Source: Chrysomallon squamiferum (taxonomy: Eukaryota > Animalia > Mollusca). Taken from it: a stretch of 64,000 bases of DNA. Every line of letters starts with the position of its first letter. The first letter of the stretch is position 1. The notes under the pieces were generated by a model. It ran no database searches. It saw only the letters and a program-made list of their open reading frames with translations, and was not told the DNA's origin. Positions 1 through 61,167 of the stretch are shown piece by piece. The DNA is taken from the NCBI GenBank assembly GCA_012295275.1, contig CM022673.1, forward strand, positions 23,994,001 through 24,058,000. The letters are read 5' to 3'. The translations under genes were made by a program, and so were the position numbers.

Positions 1-58
1 GACTGAAAACAAAAGAGAATTTTGTTTTCAAAAGTAAACTTTTAAGTTCTGTGATACA

Positions 59-1576
59 ATGGCAAGCAGAAGACAGTTTCAGTACTGCAAGGTGATCATC
101 GCCACATCGATGGTGTGGGTGATGCTGGATGTGTTTCTGCTCATGTACTTCACTGACTGCACACAGATGTCTGACTGCAGGAGGAAAACAGAACAGTCTG
201 GAGATCTGCAACAACCACAGAAACAAAAAATAGGTTTTCTACAGAAGATCCTGCCTAAAGGTTTTTATTATCCACTTTTCAATTATTGTGTTAAATTTAA
301 AAACAAAAAAATAATAATAATTTTTAACAATCACACTTAATATTTGTGACTGATTTGTTTTCATTACTAATAATTTATGTTAGTTTAGTTAGTGTAGATT
401 TTTTAAAATAACCCACAGTTAAAAATAACTTGAGATAATTATCTTGAGAAAAGTTAACAATTTAATGACCAGTTTACAAACATTTTTCTTTATCAGGTTT
501 TGTAATACTTATATACAGAATATACTGACATAAATGAACAATCAATTTAATTATCAGTGTAGTACTGTTATCGTGACAACGAAGATGCTTAATATTTGTA
601 CAGCAAGATGTAACCGATATTAAAATAACTACACACTGTACATAGAGAAAGACATCTGAAATACTCTACAAATATGTACATGAAAGAATTCAGGTGGTGT
701 TGTATATATATGTGAAACTCTACTTGTGTGACTCAGTTCAACTGATTTTAGTATTTTCAGAGTATGGAACACTTCAGACTGTATTTTAAAACACTGCACT
801 GCAAAGAGTGTTTAATTTAAAGTTCCAGAATTAATGGATTTCTTCCATTACTTTGCAATATTCTGTGCTGTTTTATTGATGGGTGTGTCTCTTAAATACA
901 CCAGTAATTACACAGTGTTGGCTTTCTAACTGAAAACACCTGTGCAAATGAGGCACAGGTGAAAAATATTAATAACAACATCTCATTTAGTTCATGGGGA
1001 GACACACAGAAAAATTAAATAGACAGAGAACTCTGTTTACAATATTTCAGATTTTTTTAATATATACATAGTGTGCACACACTTTAAAATGATTGATTCA
1101 TCTTAATATTAACACTAAATGCCATTGCTGTTGTCATGGTAACACTCAGTATTGCATTGATAATAAATGCATTGTTCATTTATGTGACTATAACCTATCA
1201 GATAAAGAAAAAAAAGTCTATAAACTGGTTGTTTACATATTTTATATATATGTATGTTTAGAGAGAGAAGGGGAAAGAAAGATACTGAATGAGTGAAACT
1301 ACTATTTGTTTGTATGTATATATGTATAAACATATATAAACACATTTTTATTGCTATACATAAATATAGAAACAGCCTTTCCAATATTGATTTTAGATGT
1401 GAAATAATAACAGGGACAATGTGACTCATGCAATATTAGCATATACAAAAATCATTTCTTGTGTTTGTAAGAAATTTTAGTTTTAATTTTAGAAATAAAA
1501 ATGTGTCAATGTGTGTCCCTAAATATGTTTATACATACATACATACATACATACATACAGGCAGTTTCACTCATTT

Positions 1577-1647
<71 letters not shown>

Positions 1648-3099
1648 TGTTTACCCTGACCATCATCAGTCATCATGTCTTTTCTCTCACTCATTATGAA
1701 TTTGCTTATGTGTATTAAAACTGTCCATTCTGATATCTATTTTTCTTTTTTAAATTAAGACACATTTATTTTTGTATTTCTAAGTGTATGTGCATGTATA
1801 TGTATATGTCTCTGTGAATATATGTGTGTATGTGTATGAGTTTGTGCATGTATGTGTTTGTGACTATATGAATGTATATGGTTGTATGTGTTTGTGTGTG
1901 TGTGTGTGTGTGTTTCAACTGTACATATTTGTAGTATTTTCATTTTGTGTTTAGGTCTGTTGCCACAGCTAACACCAAATGGCCCAGGGGAGATGGGCAA
2001 AGCTGTCCAGGTACCAAAGGAAAGAGAACAAGAGGCAAAGGAAAAGTTTAAAATAAATCAGTTCAACTTGGTGGCAAGTGATATGGTATCCCTCAACAGA
2101 TCTCTGCCTGATTACAGGATGGATGGGTATGTGTGTGTTTTGTGTAGAAAACTTGAAGTAAAACGTGCTATTCAGTTTGTTATTTTATTTTTATACAGAA
2201 AACGTGTGGTAAAGGTAATAGGATCTTCATTTATCATCACTTCAGGACACTGTGGGTTTTTTAAATCAACTTTTTCAAAGTAATTATAATATTTTAATAA
2301 TAATGTGATAGAGGAGAGAAAACAAATTCCAAAACATGCATATGTCTCTAACTGATCTTATATATGTGTGTGTGAGTGTGTATGTGTGTGTGTGTGTGTG
2401 TGTGTGTTTTGTAGACAAAATTTGAAATATTACTTTTTATATTAATATAGGTCAAAAATAAAATCTCTGCCACAGTTGTCACTTTATTTATTTTTTTATT
2501 AATGCATTTAGCTTAATTTTGCTCATATTGTTTGACAGAGACGATAGTCAAAAAAATATACATCTATACTGTCTGAACTAAATTAGTTTATATGTATTGA
2601 TGTAGGCTAAAATGAAAACTGACGTAGAATGAAAATACAGTATGTAGACTAAAATTACAATCTGCTGTTGACAGGTGTAAGAAGAGGAAACTTCCACCTG
2701 TTGAAGATCTGGCCAAAACCAGCATCATCATCGTCTTTCACAACGAAGCGTGGTCAACGCTGCTGCGCACAGTACACAGCATCATCAACCGCACACCACA
2801 ACCTTTGTTAGAAGAAATCATCCTTGTTGACGATGCCAGCGAGAAAGGTTAGTTTATTTATTAAAGTAGCAGTTTACTGATTGTTTGTGATAAATTGTCT
2901 GTTAACATCAGTTGTTGATTTATATTTGTTTATTAATCAAACCAGTGTTAAGTTCATGCATGTGTTAGCAACCAATGTAAACATGTTTCTGTATTACCTG
3001 CAGTTACTGTCAGAAAATTAACTGAGTGTCTTAAAATAGTTGTTAAGGGTAAATGCAGACATTGTTTCTTAAAATTGTTATTAACAACATTATGTATCT

Positions 3100-3133
<34 letters not shown>

Positions 3134-3795
3134 TTTATATTATTATTTTTATTGTTAACAAATGCATAGATGGTGTGTGAAAGAAAAACAAGTGCAGTAA
3201 TCGAAAACAAACAAAAAATTTCATATTATTATAAACAATAATATTACACAAAACTTTAATTTCTTTGACACTTTTTTTTTTTTTTTTTTTTTTTTTTTCA
3301 TTTAACATACCAATTTTTCTCCTTTGAAATGCAGTTTACTCCATGAGTTACTTATTGTCTTTGTATCTTAAATGCTACCTTTTTTTTTTTTTTTTTTTTG
3401 AATTTCCTCTGACCCTCACTCTCTGTTGTTAATTTACACATGTTAATCTGCCAATAAAAGAAAATGGTTTACACAAAAGGTGCAGTCACCTTCCTGGAAA
3501 ATTGACTTCTTCTGTCAATTGTTTTTTTAATTTTTTTATTTTTTTTATTTTTGTGTGTGTGGTCACAACAAACAAAGATTAGCCCAGATTGGTATAAAAT
3601 GTTGACAAATTGTGTTTTGTTTTGAAACAGCCCCGGAAGGTCATTCAGTCAGATCAAACATTGTTTATTGATTTTTACAGATCAGGATGCAAATTTTGGT
3701 AAAAAAAAAACAGTTTTCTTGCATCATCAATAATTTTCTTTAACTTGGTTTTAGTTCTTCCATTATTATTTTAGCAAGCTAATACCACTGAGCAC

Positions 3796-3835
<40 letters not shown>

Positions 3836-6800
3836 TATTATTGTCATCCTTATTATTATTATTATTATTGTCATCCTTATCATTATTATTATTGTTGTTG
3901 TTTATTTGTGGGTTTGTAAGAGAAATATTTATTTCAACATCTCTGCACAATAATATTATAAAAATTTCTATTTTGTGTGTTTTGGGGTGTTGGTATTCTA
4001 TTCACATATATATATATTTAAAAAATAAACATTTAAACATTTAAAAAAAATATATATATATTCACATGTATATGTAAATATATATATTTTAAAAATCTAC
4101 ATATAATAAAAATCATAATAACTAAATGCTTTATTCTGGAGCTCATGTTGGAACAGGATTAATTTAGAATTATGTCATATTAATCACTGAACTGTAATTG
4201 AAAATTATTCGTGATGTTTATAAAGACCTGATGTTATGTTGTGTTTATGTGGGACTGGTCAGTGGCAAATGTCCCTAAAATAATTCTTGTAAATTTATAT
4301 AACTATATTAATATTAGTGATTAAATAAATAATAACAATAGTAAAAATAATTAACAGAAAACAAATATTAATAATAACAAAAAAGAAAAAGCCAGTGGAA
4401 TTCCACACATGTTGCAAATGAAATATTTTATTGAATGTTAATAACTTGTAACATGTTTGTGTGTAGTTACACACATTTTATTAAAGAGAGATGGGAACTG
4501 TTAACATGTGGTCAGTAAAACTAGTAATACTGTGTTTGTAATGTCTGTTAATACTATTTTCACAATCACTGTTAATTTCTGCACAAATACACTATTAACA
4601 TTATTTTGCTATATGTTAATTTGCACATAAATATACTTTAAAATTTTCAACAAAAAAAAAGTAAAATTAAGAAAAAGAAATTACAGTCAGTATTAATTTG
4701 AATATACTATTAACTTTTAACATTTTTATCATCAGAATTTGCAGACAAAGAAATATTTTGGCAAAATGTGTTCTACTGCTTCACAGTCAACTGTGAATGT
4801 TTAAACTTTTTTCTTTTCTTTCCCAACAAAAGACAGAAATGCAGGCTGTTTAACTTACTGCTTACTTATAGAATACTTACACATTCAGTAATAATTTAAA
4901 ACATAATACTGATACATCTTTTTTACTTGTAAATAATTAGTAATCATGTTTTTGATGATTTTTTAAAAGTATGCTGAGTAGTAGTAACTAATTTGTTACG
5001 AATGTAATAGAATATGCAGTAGTTTCATTCTTTATTATTTTCCTTCAGATTTTTGTATTTTATTATAACTGCTTCTTTTGTTGTTATTTCTTTATTTTAT
5101 ATGATCAATATTATAATAACGATTATTTATTTATTTACTAATGTTTGTTTATTCATGAAAAAACAATATATGCAGTATGTTTATTAATTTATGTAACATA
5201 TTATTGTCACATGTAAATTTAACTTTAATTTTGCTGTAACTGAAATGTGACACTTAGAGAGTGGTAGTGTCTGGTTGACAGACAATGAAACTTTGTTGTT
5301 ACAGAACATCTGGGAAGGAAGCTGGATGACTACGTGTCTAAACTACCTCGCAGAGTGAGAATCATCCGCCTCAAAAAGAGAACTGGTTTGATACGAGCTC
5401 GACTCATAGGTAAACTTACACACTGTTAATCAAATAGCCACATCACATCACACAGTTAGCCACAACACATCAAAACCAGCTGCATCATATCACAAAACCA
5501 GCCACATCACATCACATCACATCACAATACACAACTTGCCACATCACATCACACAACCAGCCACATCACATCACACAACTTGCCACATCACAATACACAA
5601 CCAGCCACATCACATCACACAACTTGCCACATCACAATACACAACCAGCCACATCACATCACACAACTTGCCACATCACAATACACAACCAGTCACATCA
5701 CATCACACAACTTGCCACATCACAATACACAACCAGCCACATCACATCACATTGTAATAAACCTGCGCTGAATAAATGCAGAGCTTGGTATATATTTGAT
5801 AGGTCAAACTCCTCCGATACCTGACATCTCTACTTAGATATATATTTTTTTCATCCTCCTTACAAGCTTTTTGTTCTGTCTTTGAATAGCAGAGAGATAT
5901 ACAACAGTTTTACTTAATTGTGATGTAGAACAATTATAATTCATTGTGTCATAGAACAATTACACTTCATTGTTTTGTCTCATAATGATTACACTTCTGA
6001 TCTTTTATCACATACAACAATTATACTTCAGTTTTATCACATACAACAATTATACTTCAGTCTTATCACATACAAGTTATACTTCAGTTTTGTCACATAC
6101 AACAATTATACAATTCAATTTTATCACATACAGCAATTATACTTCAGTTTTATCACATACAGCAATTATACTTCAATTTTATCACATGCAACAATTATAC
6201 TTCAGTTTTATCACATACAGCAATTATACTTCAGAGTGTGTAACTGGCACTTCTGAAAAATCTAAAATAAAAGAAAATAAAAATATAAATACAAATACAA
6301 AAATCTGAGAACTGTTTTTGTACAGCAAGAGATAGATATGCACATTACAATAATGTTGTTTGTTCAGTTTATTGACTATTTGACGACTGCATGTATATTG
6401 CAGCAGATAATTAAGATTTTGATATAAAAGGGAACGATTTAATAATAACAGTTGTACTGCAGTTTTATCAGCATATTTTACTGACACCTGTTACCTCAAA
6501 TTATATAACTTTCTGAATTGTGTTGATTTTTTAAAGTGAAATACTGATATTTAGTATTTTTATTTTATTTTTATCTTTATCTATTAATGCTTATATTGAA
6601 GGGAATTTATCATTATATATTTTATTTTTTTATTTATTTTTTTTATTATATATTTATGTTATGTTATGTTATATTATATTATAGATTAGGTTTGTTTTTA
6701 TTTGTTTATTATTATTTTTACATATTTTACTAATTACTATATATATATATATATATATATATAGAAAGATTGAAGAATACTATTACATAAATAATGAAAT

Positions 6801-9800
6801 TAAATTTTTCAGGAGCAAAGGAAGCTACAGGCAAAGTGTTGACATTTCTTGATGCTCACTGTGAATGCACAGAGGGCTGGCTGGAACCACTGTTAACAGA
6901 GATTCACAAAGACAGGTATAACACATTGTGTGTAATGTATAACACAGTAACACACAAAGTGTATAACACTGTGTAACATATCACACACACAGTATATAGC
7001 ACATTTATATCATACAGTGTATAACGCATTTATATCTCATACACTATATATAACACATTTTTAAAAAACTATGTATAATATATTGTAATATACAGACTAA
7101 TTATTTATTTGTATCACACAGAATTTATATTATATTTAGTATCACACACACTGTGTATAATATTCTTTGTATCACACAATGTATATTATATTTAATATTA
7201 TACAGACTGTATAATACATTTAATTTAGTATCACACAAGCCATGTATAAATTATAATAAACTTTGTATATCATGAATTTGTTCAATACACTTTTTGTCAT
7301 AAGATAGATATAAAATACACATTTTTATATTTAACTTACATCTTTTATTAATTCATGTTAATTAAATATACATTATTAAAATTTAGTTTATGTTAATTAA
7401 ATATTCAGTTTTTGTTAATTTAAATTACAGTTTTTATTAATTTAAGTAACGTTTTGTTTTTTTATATTAATTTATATTAATTTAAATTACAGTTTTTATT
7501 AATTTAAGTAACCTTTTTTTTTGTTTTTATATTAATTTAAAATTAAAGATATAATTTTTAATTAATTTGTATTAATTAATTATTTTTTGTTAATGAAGTT
7601 GCCTGTTTTGTTTGCAGGACGTCTGTGGTGTGTCCAATAATTGACGTCATCAGTGACGACACATTTGAGTACATCACTGGTTCAGACATGACTTGGGGCG
7701 GATTCAACTGGAAACTCAATTTCCGCTGGTATCCTGTCCCCCAGAGAGAACTAGAGAGACGGGGTGGGGACAGAAGTCTACCTACCAGGTAAATATTTGT
7801 ATATTCTGTGTTTTAAATAAACAGTCGAAATTTCAATTTTTTAATTTTTTTTTAAATTTTTAATTTTTTAATTTTTGGTTTATTTTACAAATGTTTATCC
7901 ATAGTTGTTTGCTGGGGTTTTTTTGTATGTATGAATATGTTGTATACATATTTTTTTTTTGTTACTTAATATTTATACATAATACATAGATTTGTGGTTT
8001 TTGGATGTAATCACTGCATAGATTTGTCTAATCTATATGTAAGATGATTGTTTGTGTCTCTCTATGTTGTGTGTGTGAGAAAAACAAGTATTAACACAAT
8101 TCACATTTATATATATATATATATATATACCATTTTGTTACACAGGACACCTACAATGGCAGGAGGTCTGTTTGCTATAGACAGGGATTACTTCTATGAG
8201 ATTGGTTCCTATGATGAGGGGATGGATATATGGGGTGGAGAGAACTTGGAAATGTCTTTCAGAGTAGGTGTCATCATTGTCGTTTTATTTTTGTTTTGTT
8301 TAATTATTTTTTTTATTATTTATAATAATGTTCTGGATATGTTCTAATATATATTCATAACACTCGATTTTATTTTATTTTATTTAAATAATTGTATAGT
8401 AGTATTTTAACATTTTACAGAACTTACAGAAAAATGCTGATAATGATGTTTTGTTGTAAACATATACACAGATAGATGTTGTAATAATACAGTGTATGTG
8501 TAAACTGTTCTGAAGGTCTGGATGTGTGGAGGTAAGATTTTCATTGTGACATGTTCAAGAGTGGGCCATGTCTTCAGGAAAACGTCGCCATACACATGGC
8601 CTGGTGGGGTGGCACGCATCATCAACCACAACACTCAGCGCATTGTAGAAGTGTGGATGGATGAATACAAAGAATTCTTTTATAAAATAAATCCAGGTGA
8701 ATCATTTAAATATTAATTATACACATGTGTGTGTGTGTGTGTGTTCAGTTCAGAAAAATTAGTAATTGTAACAAACAAATAAAATGTTTTAAAAATTTTA
8801 AAAAACCATTCTTCAAAATAAATTTAAGAATTAAAATAATCACTTTTGTTTCATTTTAATTAAACATAAACTTTGTTTTCAATTTTCTTTTTACTTTATA
8901 TCAAATGTCTAATAGTAAATGTATTTTGAATTTAACATAAAGCAGAATTTTAAATTTTTTATTTCTTTTGAATTAATTACACCTTAAGCATTATTTTTAA
9001 TTTCATTCTGAGCTGGTTAAAATTAAATATTTTATTAAATTGCTCTTTTCAATTTTGTGTTTTATAATTTTGTATTAAAAGTAAATTGTGTGTTTACAGG
9101 TGTGAAGAACACAGTGTATGGAGATGTGACAGAAAGAAAAGAATTCAGAAAACGTCTGAAATGTAAAAGTTTCCGTTGGTACTTAGAAAACATTTATCCT
9201 GAGTCCCAGCTTCCAGTGGACTACTTCTCTTTAGGGGAGGTAAGATTTGTGTAGTTTTATTTTAACTTGATTAGTCTGCTTGTTCACATTCCTCTTTCCT
9301 CTGTCAGTGATCCATGATAGTGAAAGCAGGATCTTGAAGTATTTGTGATTACAAAACTCCATATTGTCAGTGTTTTAATGTTCATAAAACATTATGAATG
9401 TCGTAAGATTGTGAATAATATTATAATACTTTAAAAATGCATCTACTCTCTGCAAATTGACATATTGTATTTTCAGATTAGGAACAAAGAAACCAATCTG
9501 TGTATTGACACTATGGGTCGTAAAAGTGGAGAGAAGGTGGGAATGGTGGGCTGTCATGGTATGGGAGGTAACCAGGTACGTTATTTTTATCTGATATCAA
9601 AAATAACATTGTAAGGATTAGTGTAGTGATAAAAACAAATAATTTAGATGCGATTTTGTGAAATATTGCTAAATATGAAAAATTAAGAGAAAACTTAAAT
9701 TCATGTTATTAAACAGCTAAACTTGATTTTATTAGTTTGAAAGCATTGTGCTGTATTTATTATTATTATTATCCATTCATTTTGGAATTCTTGATTAACA

Positions 9801-12503
9801 ATGACATTTTCAGATCACATCTGTTGCTATATTTCTATATCAGACATAAATTATATTGATATATAAAAAAAATATGAAAACTGATTAATTTGTAGTCAGA
9901 GTGAGATTACTTAACATTCTAGATTACTTACTGAATATAGTAAAATTGCATGATATTTGTTAAGTAAAGTTAGTATAAACTCCATTACTTATTTATTTAT
10001 TTTTAAATGTGTTATTATGTATGATTTGAAGATTCATGTGTTTAAATTTTTGTTCTATGTTTTGATTATCAGATCTTCTTAAAGACCTCGATGTTATTTA
10101 ACAACTTTGTTTTTTTACAGATTGTTTTAACAGCTGACATCTGCTCAAGTAACTAACACCTAAACACCTAATTACATAAATATATGTATTTCTTTGTTTT
10201 CTATCACATTCTAGTCTGGAGTACCAAAGGCTCTGGCAGATGGTGTCATACAATACTGTATAAAAGATATCAGAAACAGCAGCAGGTTCTCAGTACACAT
10301 GACTGTTAACTTGTAATTGTTGTTGTTTTTGTTATTAAAATATGTTTGGTAAATGTTCTCAGGTGCATTGTTACCTTGCCTCGTTCGTTTCAGGTGTTTT
10401 CTTACACCAGAAAGAAAGCTGTACAAACTGATGACTTATGTTTGGACATTTCCTCAGTGAATGGCCCTGTTAAACTTTATCAGTGCCATGGGTTAGGAGG
10501 CAACCAAAAATTTGAATATAATAAGGAGGTATTGGATCAGTTGTAAAAAGGGTTTAACATTAAACTATCTGCCAAGAAATCACCTGTGTGTTTTTAATCT
10601 AAAGTGTGTTAAACAAAACTAATTGAACTGACACAAATTTCTCCTTGTCAGAAATATATTCCTAACTTTTTAATACTTTTGTGTCTTCATCTTTCTGCTT
10701 GCTTGCCACATTAAAACGTCTTGTTGCTAATATCTCCTTCATGGCCTGAAATTAAAATAAACTTTTATTAAAAGTAAAATGTGAAGTAAACTTTTACACG
10801 TATTATTTTAAAAATGTAAATAAATTTACTGTGATGTACTTTGTTCTTGGCAGTCAGTTACTGATGTTAACTTGAAAAAAACAGGCTGTTTTATGTTTGT
10901 TTGTTTGTTTGTTTGTTTGTTTTGTTTTGTTTTGTTTTTTCACCAAGCAGAACAAAGCATGGGAAAATATATATTATATATAGTTGAGTTACTTCTATAT
11001 GTATTTTGAAAAGGGTGATGGATGTACAAAGTCTGTAACCATGGTAACATGTTTTTAAATATAGTGAGGGATATTACATTTAGGTAAACAGATTATCAGA
11101 AAATATCAATAATATAAAGAATACTGAAATAAATACCAGAGAAAACCTAAAACTAGTGAAATCTTTAAAAAACTAATTTCTATTGCATAGTTATTATTTA
11201 TAGTCTCTAACAGCTAAATTAAATTGCTTACCTCTCTTTTAATAAAATTACAGAACCATGCATGCTGGCTAATAATGGGTTTTGTATCTTGTCCTTTAAT
11301 GATAACCTACTTTTTTCTGATCTGCAGTATTTGAAATAAGGTGGGAGACTTTGGGATGTTGTCAGTTTAAAGGGAGACTAGTCTGATACATAGACACCTT
11401 CATTTATTTATTTGACATTCAAAGGGAAATTACTCTTGTTGGGATGTCAGTGGAACTCTCCTGCTTTGTTCTAGTTCTGTGATGTGAAAAACCAAATCAT
11501 CACAGAAAACATTTAATGTTGAAGTTTATTATTTTCTTTCAGAATAGTTATTTGAGATCTGGCTTGGCATACCTGCATGATCGGTTTTCTAATTTAGATT
11601 CTGTTATGCTGGTTGATTTGATTTTTGTTTTTAAATTTTACTTTGGCACCTTGCATCAGGTTTTTGCGTTTACTAAGAAGAAGTTGATAATGACTGATGA
11701 CAATTTGTGTGTAGAGGCTCACAGTGGAGCTGTCTGGTTCACTAACTGTGATAACAGCTTAGGAAGGCTAGAGTGGGATTTTGATTTCCAGGTAGAAATA
11801 GTTCTCAGTAAAACTGACGAAATAAATACTCTAAATTTTGATCATCAAGATATACACTGATCATTACACACTGATACACCTTCATGTTTTGTCAAACAAG
11901 CATTTTCTGATGACTTTCAAAATGAAAAAATGTATTCACCAGTAAATAAAATAAAAATACAACAGTGTCACTGTTAGTGTTTACATTCAAATATTACAGA
12001 TCTCAGATAGTTTATCCAAATATCTGCCAAATTATTATCACCATTATTATTTTGTTTTTATTTAAACATTGGCCTTTACTGAACAGACTAGTGGAATTTC
12101 TGCTGGGGAAATTTTGTATATTTTTAACAACACTACAGCTGATTTGAATTGTTTTTGTTTATCATATATTTTGATCATCCAAACTGGAGGTACATAATTT
12201 TTGAAAAAGGTCTGCCTGTCTATCCATTTAAATCATGATTTTTGATGACAGATTTAAGTAACAGATAATATTTCCACTATAAAGTCATCAGAAAATACAC
12301 ATACATAATACAACCCTTACGTGATAAATAACTGTGTGTATCAGTGTTATTTTGATCACCAAGTAAATAAGTAAATATGCAATAAGTATTTATTACTTGT
12401 TAAATATACACAAAGAAAATTAATTAATTTCATATCAACTTACTGAGTTTGTTATAAATAAATGATAATAATAACTGTTACATTTCAGTTTATTTAATTT
12501 TGT

Positions 12504-21174: not shown

Positions 21175-23220
21175 TATGTACACATGGGTTAATGAATGAA
21201 ATCTGTTTCCAATATATAAACACAAAATTAGACTTCTGATCGTTTCAGGAAATATTATTTACAAAGGCAAAGAAAACAGATTCAAAAACAGTATGTACAA
21301 ATCTGGTGTAGTATCTACATACACAACCATCAGTTACCTGACATTTACTGTTTAGCCAGTACACTCTTTATAGTAAATATTAATAGAAAAGAATCCTGGG
21401 AACATATCCAGTGCTTACTGAATGCTGCTGATGTGGCCAAAAATTGCAATTCTGAAACCTTTGTCAGTATGTATGTTGCAGCATTATGGCCCCAGTGTTA
21501 GTCACGTTTATAAAGACTGCTTGAGTATGATGCAAAAAATAACAAAGTAGCCAAGAATACAAAGACTGACAAAGAATAGATTTAATCAACTTTTGACTTT
21601 CTTAGAAACTGAGAAATGAACATAAAATTGTACTTATTTTAATTACATTATTATTATTTTAAATACAAAATCTGCTTGGTTTTTACTTAGTGAATAATCA
21701 TTAATATGCACATACACAACTATATTGTTTTTGTAAACATTATTACTATCAGTCCTAACAGTTATTAATAATTAAAAATGATAATAATAACAATAATATC
21801 TATATTATATTTTTGTAAAATTTATATTTATAATGATCATAAATATTAAGTGTGTAAAAATTTAATTTAGAAAAAAATATATAGTAATAATATAGGAAAA
21901 ATGTTTCCCAAACTATTTTTAAACAAGAAGTTATATTCATGGCCTTCCAACCATTATTTAACATGAACCCACAATAATGTCAGCTTTATTTTGAATCCAT
22001 TTACTGCTTACATTATTATCTAATAGCATATCTTTAGTTAATGAATAACTCGACCAAACAAAACGTTTCTTTTCAAAACGGAAGATATTAAACAATTGCA
22101 AGGAGCAACAAATGTAGACTTATGAAAAAAAAAATACAAAGGTTTCTAAACAAAGTGATGAAGATAAGTATTTTCCTTTGAGGTAGTAATATCACTGATC
22201 TACATAAAACCACAGGCAACAGAAAATAACTTTTTTCAAACATGATTATGAATACTGAAGAACAAAAGTATCTGAATTAAGCTGGTGATGTTGCTCTAAA
22301 CAATCATGTAGAGAGTGACACTAAGAAACATTTCTTCACTATTTTGAAACATTTCAAAACAAACAGTCCATACCGTAAAACATCTACTGAAAAACAAACT
22401 CAACAACAGAAAGGATGAATGTTTTCAAAAACTAACTTAAACATTTTGTTAAAGATTACAGTAATCTTTTGGTTTGGAAACGCAAGAGAAATTTCTCTCT
22501 ATCTGCCATCTTTACTCCTGAATGCAACATAAGAATAGCAATTGCAGAGAAAAACAAACTTGTGTTGTTCATACTAAAAATGTTCTTGTATGTAAACAAC
22601 ATAATGAATTCAAATTCAAGTTCACACAAAATACTATCTGTTGTGAAATTATTTCTTATTTTTGTGTCTACCTCTGCACAAAGGAGATACTAGCTGTTTT
22701 CCAATGCTGCTGAAACAAGCAAAATTAAGAGAGAACTTTGAATGTCATAAATGAGTTCTGTGCAGACAGTTTTGTTCAGAAGCAGCAAGTTGTAATGTTC
22801 AAAACGTTTCTGACATCTACCACACAAAGTTCAGCAGAAAAAAGAAATAGATGAATTATGTCAGAAGAAGAGAGATGATCAATGAAGCTGGGACCAGTGA
22901 CAATATAATCCACTGTAGTTGTTTTATTTACAATGAATAACATCTTTGCAATGCACATCTCATCAAATAGCACTATAGATGCCAAGTCTTTTTATTTTGT
23001 CTGGAGATTGCAATGTGCTGCATTTCACACCAAACTCAGTCAACCGTTGGGAAAACGTTCTACAAAAAGGTCACGTAAAAGCAAAGTACTGCTTTATCAC
23101 CATCAAGACTATTAATCCTGTGAACACAACGTACACTCGAGTCAACACTGGGCGGAAGGGAACAAGTTCTTCTTGGGTTAAGACCTGCTCAAGTTAACAG
23201 TTATAGTTTTCATTCCAACT

Positions 23221-26200
23221 TCAGCCATCATTCTGACAATATAGTTCTTTCAAAGCTTTCAGCTCTTCTATTAATGTCTTGTTTTGATTCTCTAACACTG
23301 CCACCCTGTTCTCCAGACACCGCACATATTCCTTTTTCTTCAGTCGACACTCCCTGGCTGCCTCCCTGACAATAGAAATAATAAACACTAATTCACTCAT
23401 TCAGATTATTCACTATTTTGTTTTTTATACTATGTAAATGATGTAACAAAGATTATGGAATTTGATTTAAAAATACAGTATATCAAACTTTAAAATATTA
23501 TCCAGTGTAAAGAAAATATACATAGGTAAAGTCAAAGAAAGAATGCACTTCATGAGAAATGTTTTCTTTTTATTATTAACGTATTTTACACAAAAGATGT
23601 AAAATGGAATATTAAAAATGATAAAAATTAAAATAATTCTAATTCATACACACACAGGAACACTTTGCATAGAAGCTGACCTCTTGTGAACTATTCAACT
23701 TAAATGATAAACAAAACCATTTTATGCAGATTATTTGCAGAATGCATTTTTTATTCATTTAAAAAACAAAAATATTTGCACAGATTTTGTTATTTACATA
23801 CAAACAAGTTATACAGTGTGTTCATTTAAAATAATAAAGAACTATAATCTCTATCCTGTCCAACCATTGCTAATTACACTTTTACAAAGAACAGATAGAG
23901 TAGGTACTTGTATTTTTTTATAAATAAGTCATATATCCAAGCATGATGTGTGGTAAGTTATAAAACATAAAGACAGAGATCATGCTTTTGTACATCTATA
24001 AAAAAACTGGGCTGTCTGAATTATATCCATTATGAAGTGGTGATCTTTTCAGCATAGAATAATTTTTAAGAAGTCATTTTTCACTGATACAACTGTGTCT
24101 GATGCTGTAAATTTATAACAGAAAAATGTTTGTTTTATACTTTTTCATAAAGGAAAAGAAAACTGTTTCCAAAAATTTGAGAAAAAAGTCAAATACGGAA
24201 TCTTCTTATTCTGTTTAATAACTGAAAACTTTAATAAATATTTGTAAAAATTGTTGTTATTTATTCATCCTGTTGACAATAAAGTTCTTTTAAAGTTTTC
24301 AGCTCCTGTATTAAAGTTTTGTTCTGATCTTCCAGCATTGCCACTCGATTTTCCAAACACTCAATAAAACGTTTCTTTCTCCCTCGACATTTATGAGCTG
24401 CATCTCTAAAGAAAGAAAAACTCAGATAAAAATTTGTTTACGACTGCCAAAACTGTTTTATATAATATTATTATTATTTAAGCATCAATGAAAAACAGAT
24501 TTTCTATAATACAATTGCTACTTCCTGTCCAGCACTTTAAGACTAAACTATATTTATTAACCTATTTTACAACTGGAATTATTCTGCTTTAACAGTTGAC
24601 AAACTTCTAATCATTTTTTAACTTTAGAATTTGAAAAATCTAACAAGAAAAAAAGGAAAAACAAAGGATTGAACAGATTTGTATAATTCAATTAATTACT
24701 TTTAATTAAATCAGTCATTTCAGTTCCTTACAAATTAATATTTTTATTTCATAGAGTAAAAACAAATTTAGGTGTTGTAGATGTTTCAGAGAAAGGTAAA
24801 GTATAAATATATATATTTACCTTATCACAGAAAACATCAGTGAAAGCTTCTATTGGTCCCAAAAACATGACCGTTTCCTCAATATTCTTGTAATGTTTTC
24901 TTCACATCACAAAATGCAAAGCTAATCTATCAGACAAATTATAATTTACTTCTAAAATAAAAAAGAAATTGTAAACAAATTTCAGAGCAGTAACTGAAAC
25001 AGATTCACATGAGGTCAGCTAAGTGTTCACTGGAGGCCCCTGTCTGTTATTCACGTGTAAGTAACTAACCTGTTTTTCAAAAGTCTCAGTTCTCGTTTCC
25101 TAGATGCTTCTTCTCCGTGGCCACCTGAACTCTGGATAGGACTGCCTGCACCAGCTACGACAACACCCTGAGGAAGTGCACCTGCTGTAGCTATCTGATA
25201 GGCCTGGACACTAGTTCCACCAACAGCCACTGTTAACAAACAAGAATAGATCTCTCGTGACAGCTGTAGTCAAATTTTATCTGATATCATCTTTTAATTA
25301 CTGTCTACCATTTGAATAATGTCTAAAATAATTATTAGTTTATACCATTATGCTAGTTAATTTTTACCAAATATTTAAACTTATTATAGTCTGAGCAATA
25401 TACTGTTATATGAAAATATATCCAAATATCTTAACAGAAAGCAGTAACCAAAGAATATTTTTCTTTTTCTTTTTAAAATGACTTAGAGAGTTAGGAGTTG
25501 AAAGAAAGACTTTATTTAAGTAAGAAAGTAAATTAAAAAGAAAACTGTGGACTCTTTCCAATTACAAAGACTGCCTGAACCTGTCACAGTGTGGAGAACC
25601 TAGCATTAAATAATCTCACCCGTGCCTGGGATATAAAATTGGCCATCTGGCCCTTGAGCATACTGAACAATTGTTGCCCCAGCATTGGTTGTCGCGGTAG
25701 CTGAGTTACTCATTGTCAATGTCTGCAGACCCTGGGACACTGCCACACCTTCAGGATGGGTGGTTATCTGTATAGCTCCTGATGGTAACACTGATTAAAC
25801 ACAAAATTACATTTGAAATAATAATTACACATTGAAGCCAGTGTCAGACAAAATCCACAAACATCATTTCATATAATTAATAAAACACTGTAGTGATATT
25901 TGTTGTTTGTTGTTTTTTTTTCAAAAAGAAAAAAAAAGTGATTATTTTTGAAACTGTAACACCTGTGATAAATTGTTGAAGATTTTTCAGTGATCATCTT
26001 GTAGAACATAAATTCTACTCAGAAGCAACCTGACACTAAGATGTATTTATGTCATCACTACTAACCTGAACTAAGTGAATAATGACAAGTACGGTTATTA
26101 CTATCATACCATGTCTGATTCATTCAAATAACCAAAATAATTATTATTTCTTAACACCTTTTTAAAAATAAAAAATAAAATGCATAAAACACTGATCACA

Positions 26201-27542
26201 TTTACCAAGATTTATTTTACAACAATATTAAAAGCCTGATAATTCGTAAATGAAGGAATAATGAATGACCTGTAGCTTGCTGATAAACTGTGTTTGCAGA
26301 ACTTGTCAGATTCTGTGCTGCTTCGTTGATTTCTCCATCTTGACTCTGACTACTGTTTGATTCTTCATCCATTTTGGAATCAGGGGATGATAGTTCATTA
26401 AAAATTTTCCTATAATTAATTAATTATATTTAAAAATAATGTAAATGTTAAGTAGCAATATTAGTACATAATTTAATAGTTATTACAATATTTGTTCTGT
26501 GATTAATGAGCATAATGTCACTGATTATTTCAGGTAAGTTGATGTACACAAACAAGTCACAGGTTTACAATTAATTTTTCAAAAATGGTTTTGTTATCTT
26601 CATTTTTAATTTCCTACAAACTTTGGTAAAAATATATAAAAACATTTAAAAATGTACCTATATGATGGTCTTCTAGCTAAAATTTCTCTTCTGGTCTTAG
26701 CATCTGCATCACGATCTTCTGAAGTCAGTTCATCATCAACAGTTGCAACCTATTCCAGTACATAGTTAGTTTTAAAATATGAAAATGATGACTTAACTCT
26801 GGAAGTTAAATAATGATGGAAGAAACAGAAATATCACACATATGTATTGTTGATTAAGTAAAAATATACCAAAGACAGTAAAAACAAATAATCTAAAATA
26901 TATTTTGCATAGTTCCAAGTGAATGTTTGGTAAGAACATAAACTTTAAAGTTTGATAACAGTAAAAAAAGGAAGTTTATAAATGAGTAGAACAATTAGCA
27001 GCATTTATACATATCACTGGCTTTCAAGTGTAATTTTTGTTATGCAACCATTTAAGTATGCCTCTCATGTACCTGACCTCTGACCCTGACCGAGTTCTGT
27101 CCAATACAAATATTATTGCCATACTTTAATATTTGTATTAAATGGTGTGGAAAAACAAATAAAACAATCACATGTATTTAATAAATGCTTTTTGTTAAAA
27201 CTACCAGAGAAATATTTGAAACTAAAAATTTAAATGTAATAATTTAGCAAACATTTTCCTCAGGTTTTTATTTTTTTTAGACAAAATTGTATTTTACAAT
27301 TATCATTTCTTTTTTCTTCTTCAGAAATGGGCTGAGATATCTAAGTACAGTAACATACACACCCTCACTACTTGTATCGTCTGTAAATTTCCCAAGTTTC
27401 CTGCAGTTTGAATGACTGATGGCTGATTTGACTGGATTACTGACTGCACCTGTACGGGCTGGTTTGGGATAGAAACCTGTACTACAGACAAGCCGTGAGA
27501 TCCATTTTCAAGCTCTCCTTGAGCCCCACTGCCTTCAGACAT
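23221..27542 (-). CDS. CREB1: cAMP response element-binding protein CREB1. Exons: 27542-27363, 26749-26658, 26409-26270, 25790-25620, 25229-25070, then terminal bZIP exon 23365-23221 (or alternative 24405-24261); ~295 aa
   Basis: Q1 domain (SVVQVSIPNQPVQVQSVIQ), KID with RREILARRPSYRKI (PKA serine), Q2 (GLQTLTM...TIVQYAQGPDGQF), bZIP EEASRKRELRLLKNREAARECR...CLENRVAVLENQNKTLIEELKALKELYC. GT-AG sites and phases are consistent. Confidence 0.97.
24261..24405 (-). CDS. CREB1: Alternative proximal terminal bZIP exon of CREB1 (R-DAAHKCRGRKKRFIECLENRVAMLEDQNKTLIQELKTLKELYCQQDE*)
   Basis: Strong acceptor tttttctttctttag; same 145-nt length and phase as the distal exon; no stops or frameshifts; 32/47 aa identical to the distal exon; AATAAA overlaps the stop codon. 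Confidence 0.85.
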
Positions 27543-29575
27543 CACTGAAACACATAAAATGTCATTTTCACACATTTCCTATAGTTCTATGCCCATATTA
27601 AAATTTATTTTCTGAAATACAGACATTATTTAATAATTTTCAACAAATGAAGTGAAAATGTTACAGAATGAATGTTTATAAATATTTATAATCATGAGAA
27701 AAAAAATAATTAGATTTTTGTACTTCACTAGCTTTTGTTTTGGAATAAGTACAGCCAAGAAATACACACATACACAAATGAAAATAATGTTACAACATTT
27801 AAAGGTACTGCAATGTCTTAGGAATACTGGAGACAAAATATATGCAGGTTTTTTTAAGTGAACTATTTGATTCAATTCCTTCAGCATAAAAATTTAATAA
27901 AAGCTGTTATCCTGTAAGTTTCACAAATATATTTTTTCATAATCCATCATAAAACTGTAGAATTGTTTTGAAAAGGCTTGTACATGGTTATATTGTTACA
28001 ACATAGAAAAATATATCCACTTTCAAACACAATAATTACAAAACTATATTAAGTTTGTGTATAGAAAACAAACATTATTAATATATATATCATATCAATA
28101 TGTAAAGTACATCTAAATCATAAGATTAAACTGTAGTGTCTCTACTATCATTGTAACAAATATTCAAATGACTCCATGAAAAAATATATAAAAAATAAAA
28201 CTTTAAAAATTATACTTCAACATTATAGGTAGAATCCCTGCTATGCCATCAACTATTAAGAAATTTGAATATATAGTTCACAATTGAAACCTATTATAAT
28301 AGAAATGTCAAGGAAAGTGTTTTACATAAATATAATAATTATTAATAAATATTTAATAAAAATCTTTTTCACAAGATTAATATATTTGGGAAACTGCCAA
28401 ATTTCACCTTATATATAAATATATTTTTTTTAAATTTGTTCTTAGATCTTTTCTGCAGTTGTTTCAGTCTGTTATTATTAATACTAGACATTTATAATAT
28501 TTGTAAGTTTAATATTTATGTTCTAAGGCTGATAGATTTAATTTTCCTTAAAGAAAAAATATTGCTAACTTAATTTCAACATCAAATCAATACTAAATAT
28601 GCAATGTTTTAAATTTCAGAAGAATTACTTTCTAAAATTTTGCAAATGCCTATCAATATTAGTTCTTTTTCTCTTGAATATATATTTTTTTTCTTCTGCC
28701 TTATTACCATGGCAACCACACAGACTTCTTTTTAATATGAATATAAAAATATACTGGATGAAATAATTGAAAATTAATCATTAGAATATTAAAAATAAAA
28801 CGTTAAAAATAAAACGATATTACAATTATAAATATTTGAAGAGAAAGAAAATATTAATTCAAAAGAATAATTTCATAAAACTGTAAATTTGATTTATATT
28901 TAAAAATCTGAATAATTTTGTAAGTAAGTTGTAACTGAACAAAATTATGAAATACCCACGTTCTAACAAATATATGCATAACAATCTGCTTTACTTTCGG
29001 GCTTCTTCTTTTTTCTTTCTTTCTTTAATAATACAAATAATACAAATAATAATTAAAAAAAAATTAAAAATTAAAAATTGTAATGCGTAATTTACAACTG
29101 CTCAACAGGATGTTTCAAATTACGTATGTGTATATAAATTCAAACTTGATTTATAAATTATATTACCAAAACGTATACTTCTTCGACACACTTAAATGCT
29201 ATAATTATATGTGTATTTTACACGGTGATGATCTACTGACCTCGATAAACTTACATTTCCATTTTAATTTTATTTCGAATAACTGTTGCTAATAAAGATA
29301 TAAAAATAATATGCATAGTTGTATAAATTGTAAAAATTATTATCGTTCAAACTACTTTTATTAAACGGGGCAATAAGCCAAAAGGGAAACCCCATTAAAA
29401 ACGATACATTTACAATAACAACAATCAGCATAACATGGGCGGAATTCAACAAAATGTCTTTTCAGAAATTATACACATGCACCACATGTATTTTATTTAA
29501 CTGCAAGTTACTTCAAATATTCGAAATACTCATATGTCAAACATGACACCACGTTTGTTTGTTGTGGGTACTTAC

Positions 29576-29650
29576 CAGTTACGTATTTTTCGTCACCAAC
29601 TTTGCCGCAACTGAGTGGATAATTTAGCAGAATACGTAGTGGCCACGTCA
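29576..29650 (-). other. CREB1: Probable 5' non-coding exon of CREB1 (upstream limit uncertain)
   Basis: Consensus donor CTG/gtaagt at 29576/29575 inside a CpG-containing island; the first coding exon begins at an acceptor 2 nt before the ATG. Confidence 0.6.
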
Positions 29651-29795
29651 AAATACACCATCGGCGTCATAGACTTCGACAACAAGCCACCTAACCTAAC
29701 AAGGTCAGTGTATTCTTCCGCGACAGTGACGTTTGTTTAATCTTGATTGGTTAATATTTTCGCAATGACGTCATTAGTCTGGGAGCTGACGCGAA
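29579..29795 (-). promoter_or_regulatory. CREB1 promoter: full CRE, five half-CREs, CCAAT box and C/EBP-like site
   Basis: AATGACGTCATT palindrome at 29764-29775; CGTCA/TGACG at 29591, 29646, 29665, 29727 and 29787; ATTGG at 29746; TTTCGCAAT at 29758. CpG-rich relative to the window. Confidence 0.8.
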
Positions 29796-47619: not shown

Positions 47620-49679
47620 TTAGTTCTGTATATTGTAAATACTGAACTATTTTTTATTTTTTATTTAATGATTATATATGTATGTTGTGTGTTTCCTGTG
47701 TGGTATTTAATGAACTGTTTATTTTACTGTGTTTTGTAAACTGTTTGTTGTTTTGTGTTGAAGGTTGTGGATGATCAGAAGAGAGCACTACAAGGTGAAA
47801 TGCTGCAGCTGTCGATGGCGATGGAAGACGAGAGCAAACTACAACTTGATAATCATCAATCATCTCATCATCCCACCCAACATCTGCCTCGACCCACCAC
47901 CACCTCCATCTCCCACCCACCCCATCACACAGTAATCTTAGAAACTCATCTAGTGTCAGATGTCACATCCCCGCACCATCAACATCAACATCAACATCAC
48001 CAACACCATCACGACGAAAGTAGTAATCAGTCATTGCTTCCATTCACGAGAAACGTCACACCCCAGCCTAACCTTGATCTTCCACCTGAGATAAAAGTGT
48101 CACGTCAAGGACAGAATGAACAGAGGAAAGATTCAACTGAAGTTCTGACCATTGCACAGCAACTAGAGGCAGCCAGACAGAAACGGGAGGAACTGACACA
48201 GATCATACTGCAGCTCGAGCAGCAGCTACAACAATGTTCTGTTGATGAGCAGGCTGCTGTAGCTGACCACGTCGCTGGTTTGTCAGCTGAATGTAACAAC
48301 AATGATCTCAAACACATTCCCTCACAATGTGCACCCTGCAGGCAGGAACTGGACATTGTTAACGACAACTACTGCAGCGTGTCTGCAGCAGCACTGGACA
48401 GACGAGTGGACCGTCATGCTGGACGTGACGGCAAGGATTCACTGAACACGTCAACGTCAGAGTCTTCAAATCAAACGGGAGTAAAGTTGAAGCGAAGAGA
48501 CAGTTTGTTTAAAACTCCACAGAAACCAAAACGTATTGCCAAGACCAGCACTGATGTCAACTTGACACATCCTCCTGTCACTTGTGATGATGTGGGCATG
48601 ACAGCGTCACACAAAAGTGATGTGGATGCTGCGCAGGATGCAGATCCCCACAGAACATTGTCTCCCAGTGAAGTGAGGACTCGAGACGTGTCTAAGAACA
48701 GACTAACTCATTCTTTACAAACGAACAGACAGACGGATAAACAGAATTGTGCACGGGCTGTTAATATTATATTTCCCAAACCGACAGTTCCCCGCGGCAC
48801 AGAGCTGAAGAGTTCCTGTCATGTTCTGAACCTGTCACCTCCAATCTGGACACCACTGGCCCTGAAAGAAGCAGCAAGTCTGACAAGTAACCCAAGCAAA
48901 TCCAACAACAACAACAACAATAACAACAACAACAACAGTAACAGCAATAGTGGAGTTAGTGAGGAAGGCAAAGTGGGTTCTCTGTCGCTGAGAGCTAACT
49001 TGAGGAGTACAAGATGTCTGGGGACAGACAGCCACATGGATGCGTTGCTGGACGACGAAGTTGTGTTCTTCTCTTCTAGACATCGGTCACTGTTCTGCGA
49101 GGTGGGGGACCCCCGCGACTGTCCCGACCCAGTAGCCATCACACTGTCCACTGGGGATGACACGGTCAGTAGTTTGTACTGTATGTATTCTTAATTTCAG
49201 GTTAACTCGCATGTATGTGTGACATATTTAAAAGTGGTGTGACATATATAGGATATTTTGGAGTATTTATGCATGAATGACTTTGAATGAGAAAGTGGAT
49301 GGTGGTGTTGTGCTGTTACATAAGGATAGATATGTGATGTGTTGATAGATAAGGATAGATTATATAGGGAAAGATATGTATTGATAATATAAGGATAGAT
49401 ATGTGATGTGTTGTATCTCATGAACCTTCAAATATAAATATTGCCCCTTTCTCTCCTCCAGATTTAATCATTTTCATTTGTAGTGTAAACATCCAACTCT
49501 TCTCAACTGAAGTGTTTCTACTGGCATGTTCAGAATGTGTCTGTGTCCCTCTTTCTGTGCACAGAGGCAGAGTGTAGCAGACTAAGTTTGTTGTGTTTTT
49601 ATTTCAGCACATTGTGCCCAACCTTGAAGATGGAATTCACAACAGTCCTCTGGAGGGATCAGCTTTCTCGCGGTACTGA
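32583..49679 (+). CDS. TROAP: Tastin / trophinin-associated protein (TROAP)-like. Exons: 32583-32647, 33011-33140, 33602-33765, 33985-34088, 34479-34594, 35181-35379, 35685-35863, 36345-36404, 36849-36929, 45289-45537, 47764-49164, 49608-49679; ~939 aa
   Basis: All exons join in frame with GT-AG sites. FEVDWSALKSIISDEGIKT matches the recalled TROAP motif FVADPAALATILSGEGVKS. The C-terminal HMDALLDDEVVFFSSR...CPDPVAITLSTGDDTHIVP matches the recalled TROAP C-terminus FHEARLDDECAFYTSR...CTNPVATLLEWQDALCFIP. N-terminal SKIP. Extra exons in the 8-kb intron cannot be excluded. Confidence 0.75.
34580..34862 (+). repeat. 28-29-bp tandem repeat (~10 copies) spanning a TROAP 5' splice site
   Basis: Unit ACTTCTCTACAAAAG/GTTAGTACGTTAAC; the first copy is the real exon end at 34594. 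Confidence 0.9.
38033..39220. repeat. Minisatellite, 35-41-bp unit (CTACATGTCATAGGTAAAGTAATGTGTGTGAGAACTGTGTA), ~30 copies
   Basis: Head-to-tail copies without spacers. Confidence 0.95.
42140..43430. repeat. Minisatellite, ~74-bp unit (AAAAGTATATGGCAGAAATATATTTGAACAGGAATAGAAATGGTATATGT...)
   Basis: Period of 73-74 bp measured between copies; explains the long low-complexity minus-strand ORFs. Confidence 0.9.
44020..44170. repeat. Short ~40-bp tandem repeat (TTACTACCACTGTGATCATATCATTCATAGTGTTGACAGG), 3-4 copies
   Basis: Directly visible. Confidence 0.8.
44400..45290. repeat. Minisatellite, ~50-68-bp unit (TATTACAGATAGAAAGAAGTTTGTATTTATATGTGTTACTATATCAGTG...) running into a TROAP acceptor
   Basis: About 13 degenerate copies ending at tattgcag/ACAGAG (45288/45289). 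Confidence 0.9.
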
Positions 49680-58700: not shown

Positions 58701-60773
58701 TTCAAACTGGGGGTCTTTTTTCTGGGGGTTGTGGGATTGTTCTTGAGCGAGGGTGTGTTTTAGCCTTTTTCAATTTGACTTGGAAGGAGCAATAAATAAA
58801 AACGTGTATACAGGTTTGGGACCCATCATAGTGAATATATATTTCTTTTGTACATGTTTTCTGAAAAACTTGGTATTTTGATAAAAATATTCAACATGGT
58901 AATTAAAAGACTTAGTAGGAGTTACCTCTAATAGATCTATTAGCAGGAAAACTCCTTCTCTCTCAAGGAAATAATCTTCAGTTATGTAGCATCCAACAAC
59001 AGCACACCTGCAGGAAAACAAAAGATAAATTAACTGGAAACACAAACCCAGTCATAAATAACTTTTAAAATTTAATTTTTAAATATTTAGATTTATCTAA
59101 ATAATTATGATCAAAAATATATATATAAATAAAAAAAATAAAAAAATTAAAAAAATTAAACAAATATAAAAATACTAAATATTTAAACATTAAACATTAA
59201 TAACTTTTATTATACACAATTACAGATTTATTCAGAGTGCTCTATAAATTTATTCAAAGTAACAAGAGTTATCTCACCATGCACAGTCAATGGCTGCCAG
59301 GAGGAGCCGGTGATGTCCCAGGCCACTGTTGAGAAGTTTGGTGTCCATTCTGAGATACTGTACAACAATGTCTACACCCTGGTTACCAAATAACTCCTGT
59401 ACAAATACACAAACACATTTACAACAATGTCTACACCCTGGTTACCAAATAACTCCTGTACAAATACACAAACACATTTACAACAATGTCTACACCATGG
59501 TTACCAAATAACTCCTGTACAAATACACAAACACATTTACAACAATGTCTACACCCTGGTTACCAAATAACTCCTGTACAAATACACAAACACATTTACA
59601 ACAATGTCAACACCCTGGTTACCAAATAACTCCTGTACAAATATACAAACACATTTACAACAATGTCTACACCCTGGTTATCAAATAACTCTTGTACAAA
59701 TATATAAATACATTTACTGCACAGTCTACACCGTGGTTACCAAATAACTCCTGTACAGATATATAAATAATTGTAATGAAGTGGCAAAATAAAACTGTAA
59801 AATTTGATTTGAAAAAACTGAATATATCTTTATAAGAAAGTAAAATAGCATATGACCAATCATAAAACTTTTAATGAAAACACATTTACAACAATGTCTA
59901 AAACAACTGTTGAAAATAATTTAAACAATCACTTTCAAACCATGTTTATAGAAACACAAAGTGTCTAAATGGTTAAAATAACTCCTGTAGAAATACAAAT
60001 GCTGTGTTATTTACAACATTGTCTAGGTTAAATTCTAACTTGTATCAAGTCTAAAACTTGCTGATTGATATAAACTGAGTCAAGTATGAACCAGTTCATG
60101 TTTTACAAAGACTTTAAATTGCAAACAAATGATCAACCACTTGCCTTTCTGTGCATGTCACCATCACACAGTGATGACAAAATAAACAAGATGTCTGACT
60201 GCATTTCAATGTCTACACTATCCTCCATTTTGCTTTCACCAAATGCTGTTGTCAAAATACCTGAAACAATAAATAATTAAATAAATAAATGAAATAAAAA
60301 ACACACTGGAAAAAAGAATAATAAACTATACTATGACAGCAACCTGTATTTCATTATATAAATTTGAAACTAATATAATTTTCTACTTTTTAACCATTTT
60401 AACATATTGTTGTTTCCTTGGATGTATGAGAATACTGATCATGAATATATTTTTTAAAAGCTTTGTTCTATTTTTTTTTATTTGTTATTTCTTCTGAAGT
60501 ACTAAAACGATATAAATTTATTTTGACACAGTTTTAAGATGACGTGTAAATACAAACAAGGTAAGTACCAATCAGCTGATTGATGGCCCCCTGGTCAGCG
60601 AGGTCCTGCAAGGCCATCATGTCATCAGTGGACACTATGCGCCTCATCAAACGTAGACAGTACCGCATCTGAGCTTTCTTACTGCCTCGCCCTCCACTGC
60701 CATGGAAACTGTTACCATGACCCTTGAATTTTGCTGTTTTTAAAAGAAACAAAAACATGAAAACAACTACAAA

Positions 60774-60828
<55 letters not shown>

Positions 60829-61167
60829 TATTATGAAATATTTGCAGTGTACAATGCACAAAAGTAGAAAACAAACCACAAAGTCACTTGTAAACAGACA
60901 ATAATGTTAACACATTAGTGTAATGAATTATTTAAATGTAAAATAGAAACAGTTGCATACTCATAGAGATAAATGATTGCAAATATACAGATGAATCTAC
61001 CTGCATTGAAATATAATATAAACTTATAGATGTAAAATATACATGGACTGACACACCACTCTGGAAGTAGTAGTATCAAGGTACTGACAGAAACACACAC
61101 ACACACACAGACACACACACTCATAAACTCACTCATACACACACAGACACACATACACACACACATT

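Follow-up and report, generated by a model that had tools for sequence, protein, structure and literature searches.

Why does the CREB1 gene of Chrysomallon squamiferum encode the end of its bZIP domain twice, and what has become of the copy that changed? Among the animal sequences compared, this latter half of the CREB bZIP hardly varies (Y307, for instance, in 58/58). In this gene it is supplied by either of two alternative last exons, and the proximal one differs from the distal one at 15 of 47 residues, nine of these differences lying within the first 15 residues. A changed copy, an unchanged twin and a canonical orthologue amount to a ready-made experiment on the divergence of a DNA-binding exon. 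What is striking is the lineage-specific burst in one copy of a near-frozen domain, the plan itself being known from CREM; the divergence concerns one lineage, and its functional consequences are predicted.

The gene and its two last exons

The window, by which is meant the whole 64,000-nucleotide stretch analysed, carries CREB1 on its minus strand, with five shared coding exons running from 27544 to 25070 and then the two last exons (Table 1). The gene encodes a bZIP factor of the CREB1/CREM/ATF1 family, with an upstream KID containing a PKA site and a C-terminal bZIP: Pfam pKID is matched, bZIP_1 is matched above cut-off by both last exons (proximal, 48.4 bits; distal, 53.8 bits), and the gene corresponds exon by exon to the CREB of the vent snail Gigantopelta aegis. 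The solved CREB is matched by both exons as well (E 1.8e-16 and 1.4e-21, respectively). Each last exon measures 145 nt from AG acceptor to stop, is intact and keeps the reading frame of shared exon 25229-25070, behind one common phase-2 donor. The original prediction had described such a tandem pair, and it was confirmed at 24405-24261 and 23365-23221 of the minus strand; the translations and the counts of differences given with it were reproduced, and the human CREB341 numbering, which is also used here, agrees with PDB 5zko. Q1, KID, Q2 and the first half of the basic region are identical for the two forms. A third copy of the bZIP exon was not found within the 64-kb window.

Table 1. Features of CREB1 in the window (positions in the window)
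Feature	Position	Strand	Evidence
3' end of the non-coding first CREB1 exon	29576..29605	-	matches loose ends of X1/X2 RNA contigs at 27545
First coding exon, Q1 region, ATG 27542	27363..27544	-	RNA joints; 6/60 aa differ from G. aegis (P0047)
KID exon, to PKA-site motif	26658..26749	-	Pfam pKID E 2.8e-9; 5/30 aa differ from G. aegis
Shared coding exon, remainder of KID plus linker	26271..26409	-	RNA contigs; G. aegis alignment
Shared coding exon, Q2 region	25620..25790	-	RNA joints 25229>25620, 25790>26270; 98% identity to G. aegis
Shared exon, first half of basic region, phase-2 donor	25070..25229	-	X4 contig 20 ends exactly at 25070
Proximal last exon, coding, residues 295-341, divergent copy	24261..24405	-	X4 contig 18 starts exactly at 24405
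Likely 3' UTR of the proximal isoform	23750..24260	-	X4 contig 18 to 23778; AATAAA 23755; hint only
Distal last exon, coding	23221..23365	-	0/47 differences from P0047; X4 contig 17 starts at 23364
3' UTR of the distal isoform, minimum extent	21849..23220	-	X4 contig 17; partial cover by X1, X2 contigs

Several other features of the region may be mentioned. A possible GC donor lies 6 bases above the GT donor of the Q2 exon (25620-25626, minus strand); its use would account for the two-residue-shorter isoforms of G. aegis (X3) and Haliotis. A perfect CRE (TGACGTCA) is located at 29766-29773, ~160 bases above the outermost matched stretch of the first CREB1 exon; the window contains 2 perfect CREs against 0.21 expected, and the site at 29766-29773 fits CREB autoregulation. 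On the plus strand, 47740-49194 forms an open frame of 484 residues with a coiled-coil-like stretch and low-complexity parts, in which no Pfam family scored above cut-off; it probably belongs, as a large exon, to a gene whose transcription runs away from the CREB1 promoter. The neighbours, at 38-12000 (+) and about 56000-64000 (-), are a glycosyltransferase-2 plus Glyco_transf_7C gene (GalNAc-transferase-like) and a CFAP69 gene.

Age of the exon pair and divergence of the proximal copy

G. aegis is the nearest named relative, with 98% identity over one exon and differences at 15 of the 243 shared residues. When 30 of 82 clusters were looked up for alternative ends, equal-length isoforms with two alternative 47-residue bZIP ends were found in three of them: G. 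aegis (XP_041366143.1 / XP_041366144.1, X1 versus X2/X3, 6 residues different), Haliotis (XP_046345692.1 / XP_046345695.1 and kin, 4 residues) and Littorina saxatilis (XP_070211725.1 / XP_070211726.1, X1 versus X2, 2 residues). These pairs are automatic RefSeq gene models; the Haliotis cluster includes rubra and rufescens by name and asinina by neighbouring accession numbers, and the front part of the paired isoforms is identical in G. aegis and in Haliotis. The model of Mya arenaria contains the exon twice, with the same peptide, and that of Solemya velum contains the start of the exon twice, either of which may be an artefact of assembly or annotation. One type of end was present in the Patella, chiton, scallop, oyster, mussel, cephalopod, Aplysia, pulmonate, Pomacea, Babylonia and nemertean clusters, where copies coding the same peptide would be invisible in protein models.

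The presence of a second exon in relatives had been proposed as a check, and the models of G. aegis, Haliotis and Littorina supply it. The same models speak against an arrangement special to this genome. No published description of two bZIP exons in mollusc CREB1 was found in a literature search made mostly outside the subscription journals. The layout seems, then, to be already implicit in RefSeq for several gastropods and yet apparently undescribed. Consequently, CREB studies in abalone, periwinkle and perhaps other molluscs need to reckon with two C-termini.

Metagenome contigs were also searched. In the best 80 of 316 loci, no locus (0/80) had two same-strand copies of the exon, and one (L042) had an inverted partial copy; many of these loci are short or spliced transcripts, seemingly not from gastropods, and they are uninformative on molluscs. 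Many of the contigs (L002-L080), apparently from worm-hosted metagenomes, carry between them at least three distinct types of CREB last exon on separate contigs; these types share the same phase-2 basic-region intron and appear to represent paralogous genes, not exons in tandem.

The duplication of the last exon appears to be old, since the silent codons of the two copies differ at 15 of their 32 identical residues, no similarity was found between the proximal and distal flanks, as expected of an old duplication, and both copies occur in G. aegis. A tree of 20 exon rows and 47 columns, which took in no CREM rows, leaves 11 of its 15 inner branches open and does not separate one origin from several.

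The end coded by G. aegis isoform X1 is taken as the putative orthologue of the proximal exon because it has the same initial D and the same last four residues and is the nearest row (74%); its basic region is canonical. Relative to it, the proximal exon has eight changes in the basic region and fork (R298H, E299K, R302G, K303R, D306R, Y307F, V308I and K309E) and four in the zipper (V317M, N320D, E327Q and A331T), the latter at outward positions. The distal exon, by comparison, codes for a protein identical to that of G. aegis isoform X2, so the contrast is one of 12/47 changes against 0/47 (Fisher p 2e-4); against the 15/243 changes in the shared exons, it is equally marked (p 2e-4). In the exon tree, the end branch of the proximal copy has a length of 0.96, versus a median of 0.026. 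The changes are also clustered, with 8 of the 12 within the first 15 residues (p 0.005).

The new residues are themselves unusual. Ten of the 12 are absent from 27 distinct homologous exons, and in 58 further distinct sequences, taken from the best 150 of 497 representatives, H298, K299, R306, F307, E309, D320 and Q327 do not occur and G302 occurs once. Y307 is invariant in both sets (27/27 and 58/58), and H298, K299, R306, F307 and E309 are in neither. No protein with the divergent exon was found among 55 longer candidates (46 matches, all at 70-76%), in the short candidates (2/2) or in the best 150 of the 497 representatives, where nothing exceeded 76%. By comparison of these sequences, the divergence of the proximal copy is recent, one-sided and lineage-specific, given that the matching copy in G. 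aegis is canonical. The idea that the two exons have served since long ago as a switch of specificity is not supported by this.

Position 302 was surveyed in further molluscs (rows P0047, P0069, P0087, P0121 and P0128). At this position (23343-23341 in the window), L is found in the distal exon, in G. aegis X2 and in Mytilus, I in Patella and in one of the Littorina copies, and H in unionid mussels. The affinity-setting R302 thus seems to have been replaced repeatedly in molluscs, and two gastropod lineages show the replacement in a single copy of the pair. Position 298 also varies among other molluscs.

Constraint on the divergent copy and its use in transcripts

Is the proximal exon simply decaying? 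Within the zipper (310-337), none of the 16 a, d, e and g positions has changed, versus 4 of the 12 b, c and f positions (p 0.024, or p 0.10 with 307-309 added). The original prediction of a nearly unchanged zipper needs a refinement at the four outward positions. As regards the CREB-type zipper core and inter-helix pairs (R314, E319, Q321, N322 and Y307-E312), the proximal exon has 16/16 a/d/e/g positions of 310-337 as in CREB but F in place of Y307; the role of the Y307-E312 bond was reportedly described by Schumacher in 2000. In the basic region, A296, A297, C300, R301, K304 and K305 are unchanged, and all of the base-reading residues are retained. All but K305 of these six had been listed beforehand as kept, which was borne out; the accompanying list of changes was right about Y307F and the charge swaps at 299, 306 and 309 and omitted R298H, R302G and K303R.

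PMC11514473 gives E295, E299, R302, E306 and K309 as solvent-exposed side chains of the basic-region part in 1DH3, and four of these five are exactly the sites of the three charge swaps and the glycine change. Overall, changes are present at 8 of 16 exposed positions and at 4 of 27 positions in the interface (one-sided p 0.017); the 4 in the interface are all conservative (BLOSUM62 of at least 0). Neutral decay was simulated with 20,000 runs from the codons of each exon, the extant codons being used as the start because the ancestral ones are not known. A stop came first in 63-64% of the runs and 12 changes were reached stop-free in 36-37%, so the open frame is in itself weak evidence; both constraint patterns appeared in 0.3% of the stop-free runs, these patterns and the exposed/interface test having been chosen after the changes were seen.

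Another interaction might have been lost with the changes, namely that with CRTC. Twelve CREB residues are listed as CRTC2 contacts in PMC11963146, citing Song 2018, and by sequence 11 of these 12 are kept in the proximal exon, with only Y307 different. The loss of the CRTC surface was accordingly rejected as a candidate, and the CRTC docking surface on the bZIP may be regarded as retained. As far as can be judged from its residues, then, the pattern of change in the proximal exon is not that of simple decay, and the divergent copy is still constrained. A pseudo-exon would accumulate changes regardless of structure and would lack spliced use, which is not what was found.

As regards spliced use, contigs from three of the four listed RNA runs (one study) and from one run of unrecorded kind were placed on 21500-27700. 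In run X4, the contig of the upstream exons stops exactly at the donor 25070. Contig 18 starts exactly at 24405 and contig 17 at 23364, with overhangs of 30 and 31 nt, respectively; intron cover is absent from the bin above 24405. The depth reported for the bin 25019-25225 is 24.7, which fits only the placement of both overhangs on the shared exon (computed depth 24.75, versus 23.86, 22.67 or 21.78 with one overhang or neither). It is therefore likely, from the contig overhangs of this one run, that the junctions 25070>24405 and 25070>23365 are both used. Transcripts splicing into 24405 had been proposed as a check on the exon pair, and the contig that begins there with its overhang points to them through a deduced junction. 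The spliced proximal form is represented by one contig, in one of the three RNA runs examined. In runs X1 and X2, every contig over the proximal exon continues into the intron, as pre-mRNA or DNA would, and contigs of these runs cover further introns too. In X4, contig depth is 6.1 for the proximal exon versus 13.9 for the distal exon, depth being a poor measure.

Run X5 provides one contig that spans both last exons in one piece, which counts against mis-assembly; its only difference inside the proximal exon, among the 40 of 71 differences that are listed, is a silent one at 24369. As to the 3' end, the proximal contig of X4 stops at 23778, near the AATAAA at 23755, and cover beyond it is scant (a depth of 0.13 in the bin 23363-23569, between the end of this contig and the distal exon). 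This is a weak hint that the proximal last exon has its own poly(A) site, contigs being unable to show ends. A second AATAAA overlaps the stop of the proximal exon at 24265.

The intron behind the shared donor is itself covered in part. The X1 and X2 contigs read past the donor (24748-25069, minus strand), and the cover in X4, 24769-24964, ends above the AATAAA located at 24748. A form without the zipper, stopping five residues past the donor, could be the source, or else pre-mRNA or DNA. RefSeq isoforms of Octopus (P0056) and Mytilus (P0178) terminate at this point, and tails other than bZIP occur at this point in Aplysia (NP_001243366), G. aegis isoform X4 and Elysia chlorotica; the tail of G. 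aegis X4 found no match in the 64-kb window.

Possible functions of the proximal form and comparison with known systems

The explanation that we favour, and to which we give about an even chance, is that the proximal form is a weaker-binding, still dimerising CREB isoform that would tune CRE output. As the activation domains are the same, the choice of exon would affect no more than the zipper and the latter half of the DNA-binding helix. Since the zipper core is intact, the proximal form is predicted to form homodimers as well as heterodimers with the distal one. A faster off-rate from the CRE is predicted from G302, which is helix-breaking and sits in the middle of the basic helix, and from H298 and E309, so that the same motif would be bound for a shorter time. 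Heterodimers with the distal form would then leave the CRE sooner, and transcription driven by cAMP would be damped or tuned, in a milder version of the dominant-negative principle of KCREB. The recruitment of CRTC and CBP is predicted to persist, and the KKKE SUMO motif at 303-306 would be lost through D306R. A tuning or dominant-negative partner had been among the possibilities offered in the original prediction, and, as partly dominant-negative, it is also the best reading here.

R302G is probably the most consequential of the changes. In PMC11514473, the R302A substitution in human CREB raises koff from the CRE 25-fold, and R302G is too destabilised for kon to be measured; on the strength of this effect, weaker CRE binding is predicted for the proximal form, in which the contact residues are kept. 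According to the same paper, alanine substitutions at mid-basic-region sites other than R302 stabilise the complex, and for this reason E299K and D306R may offset R302G. R302G also alters RRKKK, given as a nuclear signal in PMC11333461. Net charge is unchanged (+4 over 295-309 and -1 over 310-337), and D295-K299 and R306-E309 have arisen as new pairs, so the changes may partly cancel out, towards normal binding. A further point against a weak binder is that the distal form is also without R302, having L302.

A second, somewhat unlikely explanation is relaxed constraint: the proximal form would be minor and dispensable, selection would do no more than stop it from being harmful, its tolerant surface would drift, and it would behave approximately as ordinary CREB. 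The location of the changes on exposed sites, with four distributed over the outward side of the zipper, fits such drift; the clustering of eight changes in the first 15 residues counts against it. The retained net charge and the lower depth of the proximal contig in X4, for what this measure is worth, are consistent with relaxation, as is a GC3 of 0.28 in the proximal exon versus 0.49 in the distal one, the former being nearer to the 29% GC of the window. It has, however, to accommodate the replacement of the otherwise invariant Y307, the five residues that occur in none of the homologous sequences, and a matching copy in G. aegis that has stayed canonical.

Another explanation, which we consider unlikely, is an adaptive re-tooling of the fork region (298-309) by positive selection that confers a new preference for DNA spacing or shape, or a new partner surface, so that exon choice would switch target genes; this was the main idea of the original prediction. 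The clustering in this segment would be accounted for, as would the charge swaps, which come in pairs and restore salt bridges of the i,i+3 and i,i+4 type. Starting from the residue of G. aegis, if that was ancestral, D306R takes two base substitutions, and K299, R303 and I308 are Jun residues in the alignment with 1s9k_E. However, the base-reading residues and K304 are all kept, and E299, R302, E306 and K309 face the solvent in 1DH3 rather than reading bases, according to PMC11514473. The Jun/Fos-likeness seen in the original prediction was not supported: against Jun, the score of the proximal exon is 18.3 bits, a gain of only 1.8 bits over the 16.5 of the distal exon, and against CREB it is 61.7 bits. 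With a zipper core that is purely CREB, Jun or Fos partners are unlikely. A Jun/Fos-like reading was rejected on these scores, and a Jun- or AP-1-like switch in specificity is unsupported. A broader version, which we likewise hold to be doubtful, would have an old CREM-like switch in mollusc CREB1, hidden where the copies code for the same peptide, with one copy re-tooled here by positive selection towards new binding kinetics or target preference and with the dimer and CRTC surfaces intact. Finally, a pseudo-exon or assembly artefact, in the form of a decaying duplicate or a mis-assembled haplotype, draws on the ease of keeping a frame open and on the unspliced cover in X1 and X2, but it is very improbable and already largely refuted by the X5 contig across both exons and its silent in-exon difference, the spliced fork in X4, the rarity of the interface pattern in neutral runs and the annotated orthologous exon in G. 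aegis.

How does a weaker-binding, dimerising CREB made by exon choice compare with known systems? In vertebrate CREM, DBD I or DBD II is spliced in alternatively, according to PMC8986308 and PMC4787626. The snail gene resembles CREM and ICER in that one donor serves either of two duplicated bZIP halves at the 3' end, the junctions here being deduced from one run, and the choice between two bZIP ends is thus not confined to vertebrate CREM. Of the CREM-like switch with altered specificity that had been put forward, the alternative exons on a CREM-like plan therefore remain and the AP-1-like specificity does not. There are also differences from CREM. The pair in record P0229, two tandem bZIP halves that are presumably CREM I and II, differs at 2 of 13 positions in 295-309, versus 9 of 15 for the pair in the window (p 0.024); the CREM-type copies diverged in the zipper, whereas the snail CREB1 copies diverged in the basic and fork region. 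Moreover, the gene here is a gastropod CREB1, and its proximal exon may, on a weak hint, have its own poly(A) site. The pairs of G. aegis, Haliotis and Littorina have the same layout, with 6, 4 and 2 differences, respectively, versus 15 here.

Isoforms of CREB1 are familiar from other gastropods. Those of Aplysia (CREB1a/b/c) are said to have been described by Bartsch in 1998. For Lymnaea, PMC3105992 describes CREB1 isoforms whose bZIP mediates heterodimerisation and which are believed to adjust output, with a repressor from which the P-box is absent and in which the bZIP is kept. The snail forms resemble these in being isoforms of one gene; unlike them, they have the front half whole and exchange the bZIP itself. 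The engineered dominant-negative KCREB (R301L) does not bind the CRE as a homodimer or as a heterodimer, according to PMC11773003. The proximal form would be like KCREB in combining an intact zipper with a basic region predicted to be impaired; however, R301 is kept here and it is the neighbouring R302 that has changed, so that a weakening of binding rather than its loss would be expected.
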